From Bacillota bacterium (GTDB taxonomy: Bacteria > Planctomycetota > Phycisphaerae > Tepidisphaerales > Tepidisphaeraceae): DNA of 57,103 nucleotides. Positions within the stretch are counted from its first letter, which is position 1; each line of letters starts with the position of its first letter. The translations under genes and the position numbers were made by a program. The notes beneath the pieces were generated by a model. That model did no database searches and had not been told where the DNA came from. It saw only the letters and a list, made by a program, of their open reading frames with translations. Below, piece by piece: positions 15,270 through 22,519 of the stretch. The DNA is taken from positions 1 to 57,103 of the forward strand of contig JBLNDH010000042.1 in assembly GCA_050261455.1 (NCBI GenBank). Reading direction: 5' to 3'.

Positions 15270-16802
15270 TCAGCCACCCTCACAAAGCGAAAGTGCTGGT
15301 AAGAGTTCCCGAAAGTGCTGGTAAGAAATCGAGCGAATCTGCGATATTCCGCTAAATAACGGCACTGGAGTCATGTTCGGGTTTTGTTCGAATCCTACCG
15401 CGCCCATTTCCCCCTCATTAACGCCAGTGACTGACAATTGATGCCTATCTCTGGCATTTTCCTCGACTTGCGAGCATTCCTCTGAGGCGATTCCACTGCC
15501 GATGACTGTCAATGAGGACGGGTGACTGGCGGAAATCTCCGCCAGTCTGCCCGCCAGTCGTTCAGCTTTTTTTTGACACATCACATCCGCCGTGGCCGTG
15601 GCCTCGCCTTCCGTACCTGTGGCCGTGAGTGCTTGGCTTCCGGCAGCAGCCGGGATCGGCAGTTTCTCCACCGCTCCAGCCAAATCGAAAATGCGAGGAT
15701 CGGTGTACACCCGCATCGTCAGCTTCAGGTCGGTGTGCCGCATCAGCTCCATGGCTTCACGGGGTGTCACCCCCACTTGGCTCAGGAGCGTGCCATAGGT
15801 GTGGCGGAAGGCATGGAAATCGGCTCGGCGGCCTTCGGAATCCTCCCACTCAATACCCGCACTCTTTAACTACTTTTTGTGCATGTGCATCGTGGGGACG
15901 TCAGGAAACACGCGGTCGCCGCTTTCACGGTCTCCACGCATGGTCTTCAACTCGGCGGCCACGTCAGACCGCAACGGAAGGGTATCAGCCCGCCGAGACT
16001 TCGTAGCCTTGGACCGCAGCTTGAGGAGGGCGGTCTCTGAATCGAGATGCACATCACCCCAGACCAGATCCTTCACCTCCTGTCGCCGAAGGCCGGTGGA
16101 GAGAATGAAGCGATAGACTCGCTGATGATCCTCAGGCACTACGGCAAGGAAGTCTTCAACCTGCTTGGCCGTTAATGCCCGCCTGGCGCGGCGGATGTCG
16201 ATGGACTCATCCACCTTGTCCACCGCCGCCGCTTCCCTGGCGGTTGCCCCAACGGGGTTTGAGGGCAGCCGCTTTCGTTTCACACACCAGTTGCAGAAGG
16301 CTCGAACCACCTCAAGGTACTGGTTCTGTGTGACTGGCCCAATCTCCGGCAGGCCATCTGGCCGCAACGAGATGCTCTCCCGCCAGCGGCAGAACGAATC
16401 GCCGGAAATGTCGCCCAATACCTTCCAGCCACAGGCCTGGATGATGTGGGCGAGCCGGTTGTTAATGTTCTCGCGGTACTTGTCGTCGCGGCCCAGCGTT
16501 TTCAACTCCGTCAGGTAGTCGCCAACGTGCTGGGATAGGGGACGGGTCCGATGCTCGGCATACAGATCGACACAGCCCTGCTCACCGCGGGCGATGGCCT
16601 TCTCCAGTGCGGCGGCCTTCTGCTCACTGGCGAATCTGTCGGTATAGCCCTTGATGCGTCGGCCGTCTGACAATTCGATTGTGTAGGTTCTGTATCGCTT
16701 GCTCTTGCCGGTCTTCTTATCCTTGTACGTCCTGCGGTACACACTTGCCATAATGCATTGCTCCCTGCTCGCTCGATGTCCAACTGTACTCGATTCCATC
16801 AA
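15270..16802 (-). pseudogene. Tyrosine recombinase (integrase 1) with an in-frame TAG between the K and HxxR boxes
   Basis: The 310-aa ORF (16802-15870) ends ...VFPDVPTMHMHKK-TAG. The same frame continues LKSAGIEWEDSEGRRADFHAFRHTYGTLLSQVGVTPREAMELMRHTDLKLTMRVYTD. Catalytic GLRRQE, K, HxxR, H and Y are all present across the stop. Confidence 0.8.
15386..15406 (+). other. tRNA 3'-end-like fragment (T-loop, 3' T-stem, acceptor 3' strand, discriminator); candidate att core
   Basis: gttcgaatcctaccgcgccca equals GTTCGAATC + CCTAC + CGCGCCC + A. There is no matching 5' T-stem or tRNA body upstream. It lies about 240 bp downstream of the AVEKLP end of integrase 1, the same geometry as at 44545. Confidence 0.4.
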
Positions 16803-16811
16803 ATCGCGCTA

Positions 16812-16976
16812 CTACGCAGCGTTTGCTCGTGCCTCTATCCACGCCTCGATGGTCTCCCGCTTCCATAGGCGGACCTTGCCGCCCTCGCTGATATCCGCCT
16901 TGGGGAACCTGCCCGCCGATATCCAACGGAAGAGTGTCCGCTCGGCTAAGCACAGTGATGCTGTTGAGGCTGACGT
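16812..16976 (-). CDS. AlpA/excisionase-type MerR-like HTH protein just upstream of integrase 1. No canonical start (ACG at the expected position).
   Basis: Frame reads (ACG)SASTASLCLAERTLFRWISAGRFPKADISEGGKVRLWKRETIEAWIEARANAA followed by two stop codons (TAG TAG). This is the typical AlpA pattern (STxYRWxxxGxFPxP...W...xxW). It is bounded upstream by TAG at 16977-16979. Confidence 0.5.
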   Translation of the reverse strand, partial: TSASTASLCLAERTLFRWISAGRFPKADISEGGKVRLWKRETIEAWIEARANAA

Positions 16977-19518
16977 CTATGCAATCGGCAGTGAGTTCGT
17001 GCGCAAGCTGGCCGAGCACCTGTCGCAGGCCACAGCGGCGACCATTGCCAAATGGTTCCCTCAGTCCCGGAATCACCGGTTGTGGGGCGACGTAGATCAG
17101 TTCCATACGATCATCTGCAAAGGTTGCTGGCCGCTGTCGCCCTACGCCACATGGTGCATGTTCTACCTCGCTGCTGCCGGCAAGCACTTGCAGGAGCGTT
17201 CTGCGCTGGCGTTGCTGGGCGACATGTTTGGTCGCTTCGCGGGTGCCGAGGTCGTGCAGGGCCGCACGTGGAGGCTTTGGGCAGTAGACCTCTGGTCAGA
17301 CTCGCTGCAGCAGGAGTTGATCAGCTCCGAGGAAACGGGCCAGCAAGGGGCCACGACACACGCCTATGCGTCGGTGATCAGTCGCCATGGATCAGCCCTA
17401 ACGGGAGAGCTGCAGCGTATCCTCTGTGCCGTAGTATTGGCATCGCAGCTGGGATTACAGGTCGACGATAGGAATGAAGCCATCCTCGCCCTTGGTGACC
17501 TCGCCGGAGTTCCCGAGGAGACCGCCCAAGATGCTGTGGGGCGGCTGCAGGACGAGTACAACGTACTCGATTGGGATCAGGCATTCAGGGCATTCGATAT
17601 CCTCGGCGACGCTGTGCCACGCAATCAGTTCCTCGCCTTCGTGCGGCAACGCGTTGCCAGCGCATACGATGAAACCGGAAAGGCACAGCTGTTTGTTAGC
17701 AAGGCGGCGTCGTGGTGCGAGTTGCTCGTTGATCTCGACTGTGATTTCGCCGAAGAGAATAGCATCACAACCCGAGAATGGCGATATCAGGCCGTGACTT
17801 CGAACCTGAACTTCCTGAGGCAGCAGATCGCGATCGCCAGTGACCGGTGGACTGCGGCCGTAGGCGTCGATGAGCCGCGTGGCACGGTCAGCTATACGTA
17901 TGTCGAGCCCAGCCGTGTACCCGTAGACGTTCTCTCCGAGGCCAGCAGGCTCCTGAAGTCCGCGGCGCGCGATGTCGGGGCCTCCGCCCTTCCGATATTG
18001 GTTGTTCTCCTCTGTGACGAGGATGCCATTTCGCAAGGTGTCCAGAATGGCATGTTCCGTGGGAAGTTCATGGACCTGACCGCCCCGCATCGCACTGACC
18101 TGATTCCGGTTGGTGAAGGATCGGCCGAGTGGGAAACGCTGTTGGACGACTGGGAGCAGTGCGAGAGCCACTTGGCTCGGAAGAGTTGCCTCACCCGTTC
18201 CGTCGAACTGAAGACGCGAGTGCCAGTTCCGCCGGCTATCGCATATCGAGAGGCCCGTCTGCGTGAACAAGCCGTCGCGAGCCTGGAAGCCTTGACCAGC
18301 ATGGAGGAGAAGCAGAACGACGCCGCTGCGAAGATCGAGCAAGGACGCGAGAGGTGCGACGTTGGGCTGCTTACTTGGGGCGCTGCGGCGCTGAAGGCCA
18401 CCTGTGACCAGATGGCTGCGGAAAAGCCAGCATGGACTGACGCTCAAATCGCCGAGGTGCAGCCGCTGTGTGAGAAAGCGCGTCAGGCCGTGGTCCTGCT
18501 GTTTCCGGACTGGATTACCCGGCAGTGTCCAAGGAGCGACTCGCCGGACGCGGTGGGCGAGTTCAAGCACAAGATGCTGCATCTTGTAGGTGGCAATCTG
18601 AAGAGGCTGGGACTGGAGGAGCTGTTCCGGCAAACCGAAGTCTGCACTCTCCAGATTATCCGCAAGGCAGAGACGGTTGTTGAAGCTCGGCAGTTGGTTC
18701 GCGATGTACAGTCATGGCTAACAGCCCGTAAGGACGCGACGCGCGTCGTGCGAATCGCAGAGCTGAAAGGGTTCAGGGAGGTCGGAACCGAATACACGCG
18801 GAAACTCCAGGGCATGTGGGAGCGAATCCAGACTCCTGACATTGCGGTTGCGCGTCCCCAGCTATCGGCCTTTCTGTCCGAACTCAAGGAGGCAGAGACC
18901 ACGATTGCGGACAGGGCATCGGCACTGTGGGATGCAAAGATACGAACCGAGGACGACCTCACGCGAATACTGACGGAAGTGGATGCTCTCACCGTCGCAT
19001 ACGATAGCATGCCGGCCGATCTCGAGGACCTTCAGCTGATGCGACGCGCGCTGAAACTCCACCAACGAGCCTACCAGCGACTGTCTGACGAGAAACTAAC
19101 GGATGCGGAACTCGAAGGCGTGGCGGCCGAGATCCGCAGCGAGATCGACGCGGTGATTGGAGAGGATGAACTACCCTGGCCGCCGGATGAGACGATCGAC
19201 GAGTTCCTGGGCGCCATCAGGAAGCATCGAAAGGAGCTCAGTACGAGATGGATCGACAGCCTGGAGAAGGATGCCGACGGAATCCAAGCGATGAGCGCTG
19301 GTGAGGCCAATCGACTCCACGCTCGGCTCAACGCTCCCCCGGCTGTCCTGACGGAACCACACGCGAAGCGGCTGCAACTGATTGCCAAGAAGGTCGATGC
19401 CCGGCTGGATGCCCTGAGTGTGGAATGGTTGATCGAGAAGTTCAGGGAACTGCCGGCGAAGAGCAGAAGGGAGTTCCTCAGCCGAGCGCGCCAGATCATC
19501 GACGAGAGACAGGCATGA
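16849..19518 (+). CDS. Large (~840-890 aa) helical protein. It resembles the post-ATPase part of DUF499/BrxC(PglY)-type P-loop proteins, and its N-terminal NTPase domain is apparently missing.
   Basis: The long ORF (track 16699-19518) has an amino-acid composition typical of real proteins. WPLSPYATWCMFYLAAAGKHLQERSALALL (17128-17220) parallels the YPFHP...FQRTRGVLRLL signature that follows the P-loop domain in DUF499/BrxC. No Walker A is present. The first ~50 codons are antisense to the alpA-like gene. The C-terminal half is coiled-coil-rich. Confidence 0.7.
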   Translation: MVSRFHRRTLPPSLISALGNLPADIQRKSVRSAKHSDAVEADVYAIGSEFVRKLAEHLSQATAATIAKWFPQSRNHRLWGDVDQFHTIICKGCWPLSPYATWCMFYLAAAGKHLQERSALALLGDMFGRFAGAEVVQGRTWRLWAVDLWSDSLQQELISSEETGQQGATTHAYASVISRHGSALTGELQRILCAVVLASQLGLQVDDRNEAILALGDLAGVPEETAQDAVGRLQDEYNVLDWDQAFRAFDILGDAVPRNQFLAFVRQRVASAYDETGKAQLFVSKAASWCELLVDLDCDFAEENSITTREWRYQAVTSNLNFLRQQIAIASDRWTAAVGVDEPRGTVSYTYVEPSRVPVDVLSEASRLLKSAARDVGASALPILVVLLCDEDAISQGVQNGMFRGKFMDLTAPHRTDLIPVGEGSAEWETLLDDWEQCESHLARKSCLTRSVELKTRVPVPPAIAYREARLREQAVASLEALTSMEEKQNDAAAKIEQGRERCDVGLLTWGAAALKATCDQMAAEKPAWTDAQIAEVQPLCEKARQAVVLLFPDWITRQCPRSDSPDAVGEFKHKMLHLVGGNLKRLGLEELFRQTEVCTLQIIRKAETVVEARQLVRDVQSWLTARKDATRVVRIAELKGFREVGTEYTRKLQGMWERIQTPDIAVARPQLSAFLSELKEAETTIADRASALWDAKIRTEDDLTRILTEVDALTVAYDSMPADLEDLQLMRRALKLHQRAYQRLSDEKLTDAELEGVAAEIRSEIDAVIGEDELPWPPDETIDEFLGAIRKHRKELSTRWIDSLEKDADGIQAMSAGEANRLHARLNAPPAVLTEPHAKRLQLIAKKVDARLDALSVEWLIEKFRELPAKSRREFLSRARQIIDERQA

Positions 19519-19581
19519 GCTGCCATTATTTGTGGTCGCCGGCGACCGGCAATGTGCCTTGAGCGAGGTCTAGTTAACGAT

Positions 19582-19995
19582 ATGGGCTCGCAGCGGTTCC
19601 ATCGTCACAAGACGGCCATCGCGCGGAAGGACCTCTCCCGCCCGATGAAACTGGCCGTTGACGCCGAACTCGTGACAAGCGGCGTTACCGTGTTTGACTA
19701 CGGATGCGGGCGCGGAGGCGACTTAAGCATTCTGGCGGGGATGGGCATCAGGGCAGCCGGCTGGGATCCAGTACACCGTCCCGACGCAACCAAAGCGCCG
19801 GCCGACGTGGTAAACCTCGGGTACGTTGTTAACGTTATCGAGGATACCAACGAGCGTGCCGCCACTCTCAAAGCAGCATGGGAGCTCGCGGAGAAGGTCC
19901 TGATCGTTTCGGCTCGTTCTCGACCATGAGCGGGAATCCGGCACCTGGGAACGCTTCGGGGATGGCTTTGTGACGGCACGCGGCACGTTCCAGAA
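19582..19995 (+). pseudogene. DNA-phosphorothioation-associated putative methyltransferase (TIGR04096-like), N-terminal ~140 codons, frameshifted and 3'-truncated
   Basis: MGSQRFHRHKTAIARKDLSRPMKLAV...VFDYGCGRGGDLSILAGMGIRAAGWDPVHRPD...DVVNLGYVVNVIEDTNERAATLKAAWELAEKVLIVSAR, then a stop. The +1 frame continues (V)LDHERESGTWERFGDGFVTARGTFQN. Similarity ends near 19995. Confidence 0.7.
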
Positions 19996-20179
19996 CCAAT
20001 TGGCGGTGCAGTCGCTCAAACTGCCGCTTGTCCTCCAGGGTTCCCGCAGCCGGATTAGCGCACAAGCCATGGCGTCGGCTGTTGAGCTTGGCAATGGCCT
20101 TGCCCCCGGCGGAGCGTGGGCCGGTGCTCAACTGGCTATTGAGCTGGTTGCGTTTCACGATCGCTTGGGTCGATCCCAT
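19990..20179 (-). pseudogene. N-terminal scrap of a small conserved hypothetical protein (STGPR...GK...KHGL motif family)
   Basis: MGSTQAIVKRNQLNSQLSTGPRSAGGKAIAKLNSRRHGLCANPAAGTLEDKRQFERLHRQLVLE. Beyond ~19990 the frame is merely antisense to the methyltransferase scrap. Confidence 0.35.
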
Positions 20180-20700
20180 CCGAAACTTTCTGTGCCCAGC
20201 GCGGTTGCCGGCTGCCTGGACTCCGTAGCTCGTGCCCATTTCTGCCGGGAGCCGAGGCCAGCCATTCCGCCAGCCGGGATTGTACCATGCGCAGGTCTCG
20301 CGGGATTCGCGGCACACAGCTGATTACACGGTGCAGTCCCCTGCTCAGCGCATGCCTGCGACGCGCAATGCTCGTGGGAGCTGCCATGCCCCTACTTCGA
20401 TTGAATCTTTCGCGTAATCGTCGGGTCTGCTCCGTGGCAACGGCAGGAGTATCAGACGCGGCGACACCGAGATACCGTTTCAGCTGCTCCAGCACAGCCG
20501 GATTGCCCGCCGGCGCAGGCTGTACCGGTTGCAGTTGGATCGGCAATGCCTGCGACGCGTCACTTGTTGGCGCGGGCATCTTCTCGGTGCATAACTGCTC
20601 TACGACTGTACCCGCCTGCTTCCCGGCCTCGTTGCAGGCCGCTTGCTCCCTCGTGTTGTCATGCTGAATCGCATTTCCGCTAAAAAGTGGTTTGATCGGT

Positions 20701-20747
20701 TTGACCCTGTTTCTTGACGCCTACTACTATACCATCCGTATGGATGG
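20701..20747 (+). promoter_or_regulatory. Candidate sigma70-like promoter plus inverted-repeat operator upstream of the RHH gene
   Basis: TTGACC (20701-06), 18 nt spacer, TACTAT (20725-30), followed directly by CCATCC-gtat-GGATGG (20732-20747). The AAGGAGG RBS is at 20771 and the ATG at 20783. Confidence 0.3.
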
Positions 20748-20782
20748 CGTTTAGATGATATACAGATGGCAAGGAGGCGGTC

Positions 20783-21172
20783 ATGGCCGGCGAGACGGAG
20801 AAGATCACGATGAACCTGGGTCCCATTGATCTGGGTCAGATCGATCTGCTGGTTCAAGAGGGATTCTACTCCAACCGCACCGACTTTCTCCGCACCGCCA
20901 TCCGCAACCAATTGGCCGCTCATGCTGATGCCGTCCGGCAGGCTGTTGCCCGCAAGACACTCGTGCTCGGGCTGCAGCAGTACACTCGCCAAGACTTGGA
21001 GGCGGTGCGTGCGGCCGGGCAGCGGCTGCAAATCAGGGTCTTGGGCCTGGCCAGTATCGCCGAGGACGTCTCGCCGGAACTGGCCCTGGCCACGATCGAC
21101 AGCATCAGCGTGCTGGGGGCATTTCATGCCAGTGACGCGGTGAAGCGGGCGCTGGCCGAACGGATCACGTAG
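20783..21172 (+). CDS. CopG/ribbon-helix-helix family regulator
   Basis: 129-aa ORF with a strong RBS. KITMNLGPIDLGQIDLLVQEGFYSNRTDFLRTAIRNQL is a canonical RHH N-terminus. Confidence 0.8.
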   Translation: MAGETEKITMNLGPIDLGQIDLLVQEGFYSNRTDFLRTAIRNQLAAHADAVRQAVARKTLVLGLQQYTRQDLEAVRAAGQRLQIRVLGLASIAEDVSPELALATIDSISVLGAFHASDAVKRALAERIT

Positions 21173-21226
21173 CCGGACGTGGTGGCCCAGGTGGCCGCCT
21201 GCAGAACACCCGTGAAAGGACATCTC

Positions 21227-22519
21227 ATGAACACCGGAATACTGGAAGCAATGCGTCTCACGCGCGAAGGGAAGTTGGCCGAGGCGACGGCCCTCATTCA
21301 ACGTACCTTAAAAGGCGGGCACGCTCCGCCCAGCGCCCCCGTAGGCCAAGCGAGTTCAGTAGAACCCATCGCGCTGACGGGACCCGTTGCCACCGAAGCG
21401 GCGGACACAGACCAAGCGACCTCGTCTGAAGCGTCGGCGGCGGCATCAGAGGCGCAGCCACGGTCAACCATCCATGCAAGGGCTCGCCGCATGCCGACCG
21501 GCCGTCCCTTTGTCCCGCCCCTGAAGCCTCCCGTCGAGTCGCGGGTACCTGGATTGGAGGGACTGTTTGGGCGCGGGCCTGTCCTGCAGCCGACTCCGGT
21601 GGACTTGGCGGGACCCGGCCAGTGGATCGCGGGAACCCATACCAGCGCGGCGGGAAAGCGAGACTATAAGCTCTACATTCCCAGCGGGTATCGCGGCCAG
21701 GCCTTGCCGCTGGTGGTCATGCTCCATGGCTGCACGCAGAGCCCCGATGATTTCGCCGCCGGCACCGGCATGAACGCCATGGCGGAAGCGGAAGGGTTCC
21801 TCGTGGCCTATCCGGCACAAGCCCCCACCGCCAACCCCTCGAAATGCTGGAATTGGTTTGACGCCACCCACCAGCAGCGAGACGGTGGCGAGCCCACGCT
21901 CATCGCCGGGATCACGCGTCAGGTGATGGCCCAATACAGCATCGATCCTGGCCGGATCTATGTGGCGGGACTCTCGGCGGGTGGGGCGATGGCGGCAATC
22001 CTGGGGGCGACGTATCCCGACCTCTATGCGGCCGTCGGCGTGCATTCGGGCTTGGCTCCGGGCTGCGCCCAAGACCTTCCGTCGGCCTTTCAGGCGATGC
22101 AGCAAGGCGGCTCCGGGGGGCAGCAGACGCGCATGGGTCGCCTTCCCCCGCTGATCCTCTTCCATGGGGATGGCGATTCCACGGTCCACCCGTGCAATGC
22201 CGATCACCTGGTCCAGCAGTGGACCGCCACCGACGGGTCCCCAGGTCCGGGCGAAAGCGCCCCGCCGGTGACTGTACAGCAGGGGCAGGTACCCGGCGGG
22301 CGAGCCTATACCTGCGAAATCTACCATGACATACGCGGGCAGGCCGTCGTGGAACGGTGGACCGTGCACGGCGCAGGTCACGCGTGGTCGGGGGGAAGTC
22401 GCCACGGTTCGTATACCGATCCTGTCGGCCCGGATGCGTCGCGGGAGTTGGTCCGCTTCTTCCAGGAACACCCGCGGGGATTGGCGGCGCCTTGGCCGGA
22501 AGCGAAGCGGCCGCGGTGA
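21227..22519 (+). CDS. PHB-depolymerase-family esterase (LpqC/TIGR01840-like)
   Basis: Start at MNTGILEAMRL (ATG 21227). DYKLYIPSGYRGQALPLVVMLHGCTQSPDDFAAGTGMN...NPSKCWNWF...IYVAGLSAGGAMAAILG (GLSAG nucleophile elbow). Confidence 0.85.
   Translation: MNTGILEAMRLTREGKLAEATALIQRTLKGGHAPPSAPVGQASSVEPIALTGPVATEAADTDQATSSEASAAASEAQPRSTIHARARRMPTGRPFVPPLKPPVESRVPGLEGLFGRGPVLQPTPVDLAGPGQWIAGTHTSAAGKRDYKLYIPSGYRGQALPLVVMLHGCTQSPDDFAAGTGMNAMAEAEGFLVAYPAQAPTANPSKCWNWFDATHQQRDGGEPTLIAGITRQVMAQYSIDPGRIYVAGLSAGGAMAAILGATYPDLYAAVGVHSGLAPGCAQDLPSAFQAMQQGGSGGQQTRMGRLPPLILFHGDGDSTVHPCNADHLVQQWTATDGSPGPGESAPPVTVQQGQVPGGRAYTCEIYHDIRGQAVVERWTVHGAGHAWSGGSRHGSYTDPVGPDASRELVRFFQEHPRGLAAPWPEAKRPR

Follow-up and report, generated by a model that had tools for sequence, protein, structure and literature searches.

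What protein was once encoded by the large open reading frame (ORF) that lies between a broken integrase gene and a broken methyltransferase gene, and did the ORF and the methyltransferase gene ever form a defence system of their own? The ORF belongs to contig JBLNDH010000042.1 of assembly GCA_050261455.1, which was analysed as one stretch of 57,103 nucleotides (the window). An earlier note, made from the letters of the sequence, had described a decayed pair, namely a DUF499/BrxC-like protein without a P-loop and a frameshifted DNA phosphorothioation-associated putative methyltransferase (TIGR04096), and had suggested that the two families might define a modification-dependent module. As detailed below, the large ORF is the wreck of a conserved ~1,429-aa (amino acid) SspC/BrxC-like AAA+ ATPase of the ORC/Cdc6 clade, here termed SspC' (cluster C0), and positions 15270–19996 of the window are, with a probability of roughly 0.85, the decayed and almost certainly non-functional end of an integrative defence island. 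A dead island remnant is the best reading, given that four neighbouring genes carry four lesions (Table 1) and that partner genes are lacking in the same genome.

The large open frame and the ATPase family behind it

Read from its in-frame starts at 16849 (ATG), 16876 (TTG) and 16999 (GTG), the large ORF would yield products of 889, 880 and 839 aa, respectively, and a gene caller would list this crippled frame as an 880-aa hypothetical protein. The codons upstream of ~16987 run antisense to the AlpA-like remnant and to the start of the integrase gene, both on the minus strand. The motif WPLSPY...QERSALALL is located at 17128–17217, and the Walker A pattern [AG]xxxxGK[ST] has zero matches anywhere in this frame. 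In all of these respects (ORF, motif, missing Walker A and antisense lead over the AlpA-like gene) the earlier note was accurate. The ORF itself has no match among the Pfam, NCBIfam and PADLOC profiles, and no sigma-70-like site was found upstream of it on the plus strand.

Table 1. Positions of the features between the integrase gene and the end of the methyltransferase homology in the window
Feature	Position	Strand	Content or basis
Tyrosine integrase gene with in-frame TAG at 15870-15872	15270..16751	-	Phage_integrase profile
Open frame of the large ORF	16699..19518	+	939 codons counted from first TTG
AlpA/excisionase-type helix-turn-helix remnant, 5'-truncated	16812..16976	-	54 codons and stop
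SspC/BrxC-like ATPase pseudogene, first retained block	16987..18024	+	Family positions 372-718; genome profile search, BLASTP
SspC/BrxC-like ATPase pseudogene, second retained block	18025..19518	+	Family positions 935-1428 and stop codon; all-helical C-terminal region
Methyltransferase N-terminal fragment, frame A	19552..19929	+	NCBIfam TIGR04096; region of the S-adenosylmethionine motif VFDYGCGRGGD
Methyltransferase continuation, +1 frame (SGTWERFGDGFVTARGTFQ)	19937..19996	+	tblastn, three-frame translation, BLASTP against C5 proteins

A homology search with the large ORF returned 342 proteins at E<=1e-3. The listed homologues without N-terminal shortening measure ~1,420–1,446 aa; no Pfam domain is recorded for any of them, and almost all carry the name hypothetical. 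The best homologue, P0003, is 68% identical to the first retained block (BLASTP). When the family profile was searched against the genome of the window, it placed family positions 372–718 at 16987–18027 and positions 935–1428 at 18025–19506, in a single stop-free frame and in agreement with the BLASTP alignment. Two losses separate the window copy from its relatives. The first comprises ~371 N-terminal residues, which make up the entire ATPase core and include the Walker A (GYGTGKS, residues 91–97) and Walker B (LFDEFG, residues 274–279) motifs that are invariant in intact family members. The beta strands of this core end at about residue 365 in the AlphaFold model of an intact relative, and the window copy therefore begins just behind the whole nucleotide-binding core. 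The P-loop is absent because the gene is truncated: the earlier note was right that the frame contains none, but what remains is a truncation of a ~1,429-aa ATPase and not a short protein built without a P-loop. The second loss, which the earlier note did not mention, removes residues 718–934 of P0003, i.e., 217 aa (651 nt), exactly in frame with its junction at 18024/18025, and takes with it the invariant FPFDGF (801–806) and further columns that are invariant in intact relatives. There are 126 positions at which all 27 other aligned members agree; the window copy is altered at 6 of these, as against 0–1 in its closest relatives.

The superfamily of the protein is best seen in its intact relatives. 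Their Pfam scan gave no match, DUF499 and BrxC_BrxD included, and the family profile found nothing below E 0.13 among the chain sequences of the PDB. The PADLOC models for SspC match all six intact relatives tested, weakly and in their N-terminal parts only (best E 6.6e-7 to 6.9e-13). Profile–profile alignment by hhalign of 16 family members with four canonical SspC proteins extends over 768 columns (probability 95%, E 4e-8), and pairs the family's GCWPLSPY..GKHLQERSAL with the SspC stretch holding PLHPLS..QNDRTLFTFL, a region that the window copy retains (17128–17217). In addition, residues 1–720 of the intact relative L003 were modelled by AlphaFold with a predicted local distance difference test score (pLDDT) of 82.4 and a predicted template-modelling score (pTM) of 0.67. 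This model has 27 PDB matches at E<=0.001, led by Acinetobacter BrxC chains (E 2e-8, template-modelling score 0.59–0.60 on target) and followed by ORC/Cdc6. The label 'DUF499/BrxC-like' is thus borne out at the superfamily level, by hhalign and by the BrxC fold of the intact relative, and not by any Pfam DUF499 match; the motif equivalence that the earlier note had drawn is the same pairing that the profile–profile alignment gives. The structure prediction that it had proposed, for the 16999–19518 product, found no PDB match at E<=0.001, and it is the model of the intact relative that matches BrxC.

Database homologues of 1,000–1,294 aa were considered as natural short forms of the family and rejected; all are simply shortened at the N-terminus, lack the internal deletion and are probably contig-edge partials. 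Several database proteins (P0028, P0042, P0006, P0008 and P0080) begin at family positions 321–371, near the start of the window copy (372). They are probably contig-edge partials, with break points that are nevertheless clustered behind the ATPase core.

Might the ATPase-less protein still be made and have a role of its own, as a scaffold, a regulator or a dominant-negative factor against incoming Ssp-type systems? The 839-codon frame has stayed open despite two deletions, the second exactly in frame. The AlphaFold model of the 839-aa remnant (pLDDT 75.7, pTM 0.39) has a poorly modelled N-terminal half, and Foldseek finds no PDB match for it at E<=0.001, but its C-terminal 460 residues (380–839) are modelled confidently as long helices. 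Such a role is nonetheless improbable for a product that lacks the ATPase core, has lost a block with many invariant residues and carries the six altered invariant positions. The gene has no promoter-like site upstream and no partner genes in its genome, both of its flanking genes are broken as well, and no other short form with both window deletions occurs among 120 listed homologues.

The intact cassette and its optional methyltransferase

A scan of one genome per species yielded 232 relatives of the ATPase, from which 80 loci were kept and their ORFs clustered; the number of eligible loci, used below as the denominator, varies by gene among these 80. The ATPase gene C0 is the final gene of a fixed co-directional cassette, C4-C3-C1-C2-C0. 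C4, found upstream of C0 in 50 of 56 eligible loci, is SspF-like (PADLOC E 9e-27) and occurs as short frames of 770–796 aa (as in L086 and L087) or long frames of 1,350–1,531 aa (1,354–1,531 aa in L083, L084 and L085). In Pfam scans of two long forms, both proved to have a NERD nuclease domain together with Ser/Thr kinase domains, and one of the two, in an NCBIfam scan, resembles the MADS6 and PglW kinases, below their cut-offs. C3 (~540 aa; 54/58) is SspG-like in its C-terminal part (PADLOC E 3e-19), C1 (~1,800 aa; 60/60) is a DndH/SspH-like translocase with an ATPase of the HerA/FtsK type (E 2e-59 / 3e-23), and C2 (~283 aa; 73/74) has a weak DUF4007/SspB match (E 1e-7 / 6e-6).

Canonical SspB-SspC-SspD lies directly upstream of this cassette in four of five extended loci, in one of them with SspA too (PADLOC E 1e-110 to 0). 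The fifth extended genome (L024) has a ~1,115-aa ORF that clusters with the ATPase family and is flanked by three further ORFs, convergent downstream; by size alone, this four-ORF group is read as SspA-D. In all 10 of another 10 genomes, SspD is located 0.2–3.5 kb upstream of the locus and shares its strand; the contig number matches the record name in eight, and the same contig was deduced from coordinates and strand in two. A separate canonical SspC is present between SspB and SspD in loci that also carry C0. C0 is therefore a second, diverged SspC-like gene that works for the restriction side of a phosphorothioate locus of eight or nine genes.

The cassette is found in at least 15 phyla, judged by record titles. 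Near-identical ATPases (branch lengths 0.002–0.02) occur under different phylum labels (L015 and L016; L018, L023 and L027; the labels being Syntrophobacterales, Gammaproteobacteria, Chloroflexota and Myxococcota), which reflects a transfer of the cassette in very recent times or else errors in binning. In the Thiocapsa loci L079 and L080 (1–19863), five or six conserved genes (clusters C23-C26 and C9) lie between the DndH-like gene and the SspB'/SspC' pair, i.e., C2 and C0, and an 880-aa TIGR04096 protein with extra length is encoded downstream. The nearest analogue of the window's state is L062 (10720–16727, a Verrucomicrobiae record), a decayed copy whose ATPase gene is split into three and separated from the SspB-like gene by ~7 kb of other ORFs, with a full-length TIGR04096 gene convergent downstream.

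The methyltransferase gene of the window is a TIGR04096 fragment. Its first ORF matches TIGR04096 at E 2.3e-50 and 171.7 bits (curated cut-off 150), over profile positions 3–108 of 478 only, and is 45–55% identical to the full-length TIGR04096 genes that adjoin intact cassettes. The frame changes between ~19912 and 19936, ~20 residues follow in the +1 frame, and the homology ends at ~19993–19996; over the two frames the gene keeps ~135 of the 478 profile positions, and the remaining ~340 are absent. The earlier note had recognized the frameshifted TIGR04096 N-terminus, which the profile search it had proposed confirms, and it had placed the cut, at ~19995, where the homology ends. The 'opposite-strand gene scrap' to which it attributed that cut is unconfirmed: the ORFs between 19868 and 20667 have no Pfam, NCBIfam or PADLOC match, occur in none of the fetched loci and have no paralogue in the genome.

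TIGR04096-type genes stand downstream of C0 in 6 of the 80 loci, which are 6 of the 43 with at least 1.5 kb of downstream DNA; four of these neighbours were scanned and match at E 1e-173 to 1e-195. Four of the six are co-directional with C0, as in the window, and two are convergent. On a FastTree phylogeny of 62 C0 sequences, the seven methyltransferase-bearing rows (the window included) need six changes, close to the mean of 6.8 for shuffled labels (103 of 500 shuffles as low), and thus have no excess clustering, although rows without downstream DNA were scored as lacking the methyltransferase, which blurs the result. This distribution suggests that the methyltransferase was recruited repeatedly to the cassette.

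The gene-neighbourhood survey therefore yields the recurrent co-localisation that the earlier note had looked for, as an optional accessory. It is far above chance, since in the window's phylum only 6 of 401 genomes, its own included, carry TIGR04096 at all. That the large protein and the methyltransferase make up a self-standing, modification-dependent two-gene defence module, decayed here, is nevertheless very unlikely. The near-constant partners of the ATPase are four other genes, next to an adjacent SspBCD(A). Even among the six methyltransferase loci, an SspB-like gene is directly upstream of the ATPase in five and parts of the larger cassette are present in all six, the sixth (L062) being disrupted by inserted ORFs, while 37 of the 43 loci lack the methyltransferase. 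The copies in the other five genomes of the phylum never adjoin this ATPase or its cassette; one is beside DndC-DndD-DndE, one is beside a DndA-like desulfurase, and the rest have no PADLOC Ssp/Dnd match nearby. The methyltransferase is a floating, minor accessory of phosphorothioate loci, both Dnd and Ssp, and not the partner of one protein.

Orphan status, possible island edges and the course of decay

The partners that are so constant elsewhere are missing from the window and, as far as the assembly goes, from its genome. With the F, G, H and B' proteins of 10 loci as tblastn queries, none of C1-C4 was detected in the window, which has neither sspB nor sspD. In the window's own genome (745 contigs, 89% complete, 4.4% contamination), there is no second C0, and tblastn detected none of C1-C3, SspB/C/D or DndC/D/E. 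C4 gave a single weak match, 62 aa long and confined to its kinase part; the only other matches were generic cysteine desulfurases at 27–29% identity.

The two genes ahead of the ATPase remnant are damaged as well. The Phage_integrase profile (172 positions) matches the upstream piece of the integrase gene at 2–105 and the part after the stop at 121–168, with the frame continuing across the TAG. The same codon is TAC (Tyr) in related soil contigs that are ~95% alike, and the TAG looks like a recent nonsense change. The AlpA-like remnant, recognized by Pfam HTH_17 (E 7.5e-6, 15–50 of 51) and Phage_AlpA (E 0.029, 13–51 of 51), directly follows a TAG and has no ATG, GTG or TTG ahead of its helix-turn-helix. 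As the earlier note had held, the ATPase and methyltransferase genes are both decayed, the former by truncation and the 217-residue loss, the latter by frameshift and cut.

Most of the course of decay can be read directly from the window. One rearrangement joined the ATPase gene, at codon ~372, to the inside of the alpA-like gene and removed the whole ATPase core. If the ancestral locus was laid out in the usual way, the cassette upstream would have gone in the same step. A second event removed the 217 conserved residues from the ATPase in frame, and the methyltransferase was frameshifted and cut and the integrase hit by a nonsense codon, leaving a remnant that is most likely inactive.

Several points weigh against the reading as a dead island remnant. 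A full cassette in the ancestral locus is deduced from relatives and is not visible in the window. The genome assembly is fragmented into 745 contigs, so that the absence of partner genes elsewhere is not certain. No RNA run is listed as containing the stretch. Two soil DNA runs of one study contain 6–7% of the sampled words from it, but what their contigs match is mainly integrase relatives, plus two short pieces at 18457–19104, and none of them bridges a junction. Some distant intact members reach 4.5–7.4% changes at the invariant positions, compared with 4.8% in the window copy, so relaxed selection is unproven. Finally, the 839-codon remnant has no stop or frameshift and its internal deletion is exactly in frame, and its product could still be made, to judge from the letters, for example from the GTG at 16999 or by read-through transcription. 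The alternative that the truncations are artefacts of a metagenome-assembled contig and that the real genome has intact genes, for which the assembly statistics and the short, unbridged pieces in the public runs might speak, is very unlikely, as there are four separate lesions within 5 kb, among them a 651-nt loss that is clean and in frame, a nonsense codon by point change and a single-frame slip, which mis-joins seldom resemble, and the missing parts are on no other contig of the genome.

Contigs of the two soil runs match the window up to 15272, two bases beyond the integrase stop, and then diverge; this position may be one island boundary. On the right, a boundary at 20426/20427 is conceivable, though with far weaker backing (86% likeness across 109 bases). 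Only short, chance-like direct repeats of the att type were found between 14500 and 21600, and no tRNA genes in the window. Further to the right, a well-supported gene for an RHH_8 ribbon-helix-helix regulator is located at 20783–21172 on the plus strand (E 5e-53); this genome has a paralogue of it, 91% identical, on contig C273. The long antisense ORF 20600–21301 is probably not a gene.

The intact system and its known relatives

By the families named above, the intact system would mark the cell's own DNA with phosphorothioate through SspBCD(A). The SspB'/SspC' pair (C2-C0) would, by analogy with SspB-SspC and BrxC, bind and scan DNA or act as a scaffold and, again by analogy, may recruit, direct or license the F-G-H nuclease/translocase to attack DNA that bears no mark. 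As proposed for DndF variants in the text of PMC10853773, the NERD and kinase domains could be back-up effectors, and the TIGR04096 methyltransferase would be an optional add-on. The window copy, without ATPase, partners or modification genes, would perform none of these steps. It is itself a case of ordinary genome decay, and its value lies in pointing to the intact module elsewhere, for which cultured carriers exist (Desulforhabdus sp. TSK, which has the methyltransferase as well, Syntrophorhabdus aromaticivorans UI, Desulfopila sp. IMCC35008 and Thiocapsa marina 5811). Tentatively, at a little short of even odds, we take the relic to be part of a mobile, Ssp-linked five-gene restriction module, made up of F-, G- and H-like genes and an old SspB'/SspC' scanning pair, to which the methyltransferase was recruited repeatedly. 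If so, a single defence locus would, in some hosts, combine a backbone-sulfur mark and a base-methyl mark. It is a bolder proposal, and a less likely one, that the ATPase-less, in-frame-deleted product of the window has been kept as a scaffold or inhibitor.

The closest known protein is SspC of SspABCD, the ORC/Cdc6-clade AAA+ ATPase of single-strand DNA phosphorothioation. The likeness comprises ~770 columns of profile homology, including the post-ATPase [YW]PLxP...R[ST]L motif, the Walker A and B motifs of intact members, and the DUF4007/SspB-like gene ahead. The text of PMC10853773 describes SspB as a DNA binder with multiple winged helices and SspC as an ATPase of the ORC/Cdc6 type, and the two are thought to scan DNA jointly. 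The family differs from SspC in that it is only 17% identical (hhalign), exceeds it in length by ~270 residues and carries, beyond the SspC alignment, a helical C-terminal extension of ~470 residues. In addition, it closes the restriction half with no SspD after it, whereas canonical sspC sits between sspB and sspD.

BrxC/PglY of BREX provides the top structural match to the N-terminal 720 residues of the intact relative, over ~630 columns (Acinetobacter BrxC, 9zll, 9zdx and 9zn5). Unlike in BREX, no PglZ, PglX or BrxL is present in the family's neighbourhood, and the partners are Ssp/Dnd F-G-H-like genes. In the text of PMC12839542, BrxC is proposed as the BREX scaffold, and the NAR 2026 BREX survey links BrxC, SspC and DUF4007. 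The text of PMC10853773 (NAR 2024) describes HerA/FtsK 'capture' systems with an Orc/Cdc6 ATPase and a winged helix-turn-helix protein, as well as DndF variants that are fusions of NERD with inactive or active kinase domains. For the methyltransferase, full-length TIGR04096 members occur next to six intact or partial cassettes and beside DndCDE, whereas that of the window is a two-frame fragment; a literature search on TIGR04096 and its names returned nothing beyond bare mention of the name.

At the level of the whole locus, the nearest system is SspBCD-SspFGH of Vibrio anguillarum FF-93, with which, going by the text of PMC8092258 (mBio 2021), intact loci share SspBCD(A) followed by F-, G- and H-like genes of matching sizes. 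A literature search on SspF, SspG and SspH from 2022 on found nothing further, and neither the five-gene order beside SspBCD nor the 1,429-aa protein is named in the text (figures and supplements aside) of PMC8092258, PMC10853773 or PMC12839542. In contrast to the three genes of SspFGH as set out in the text of PMC8092258, two more conserved genes, SspB' and SspC', are present here; the F gene often has NERD and kinase domains, and the window has no F, G, H or B'. The published three-gene SspFGH thus has a widespread five-gene form with a second SspB/SspC-like pair, which poses a testable question of how the restriction side reads phosphorothioate status.

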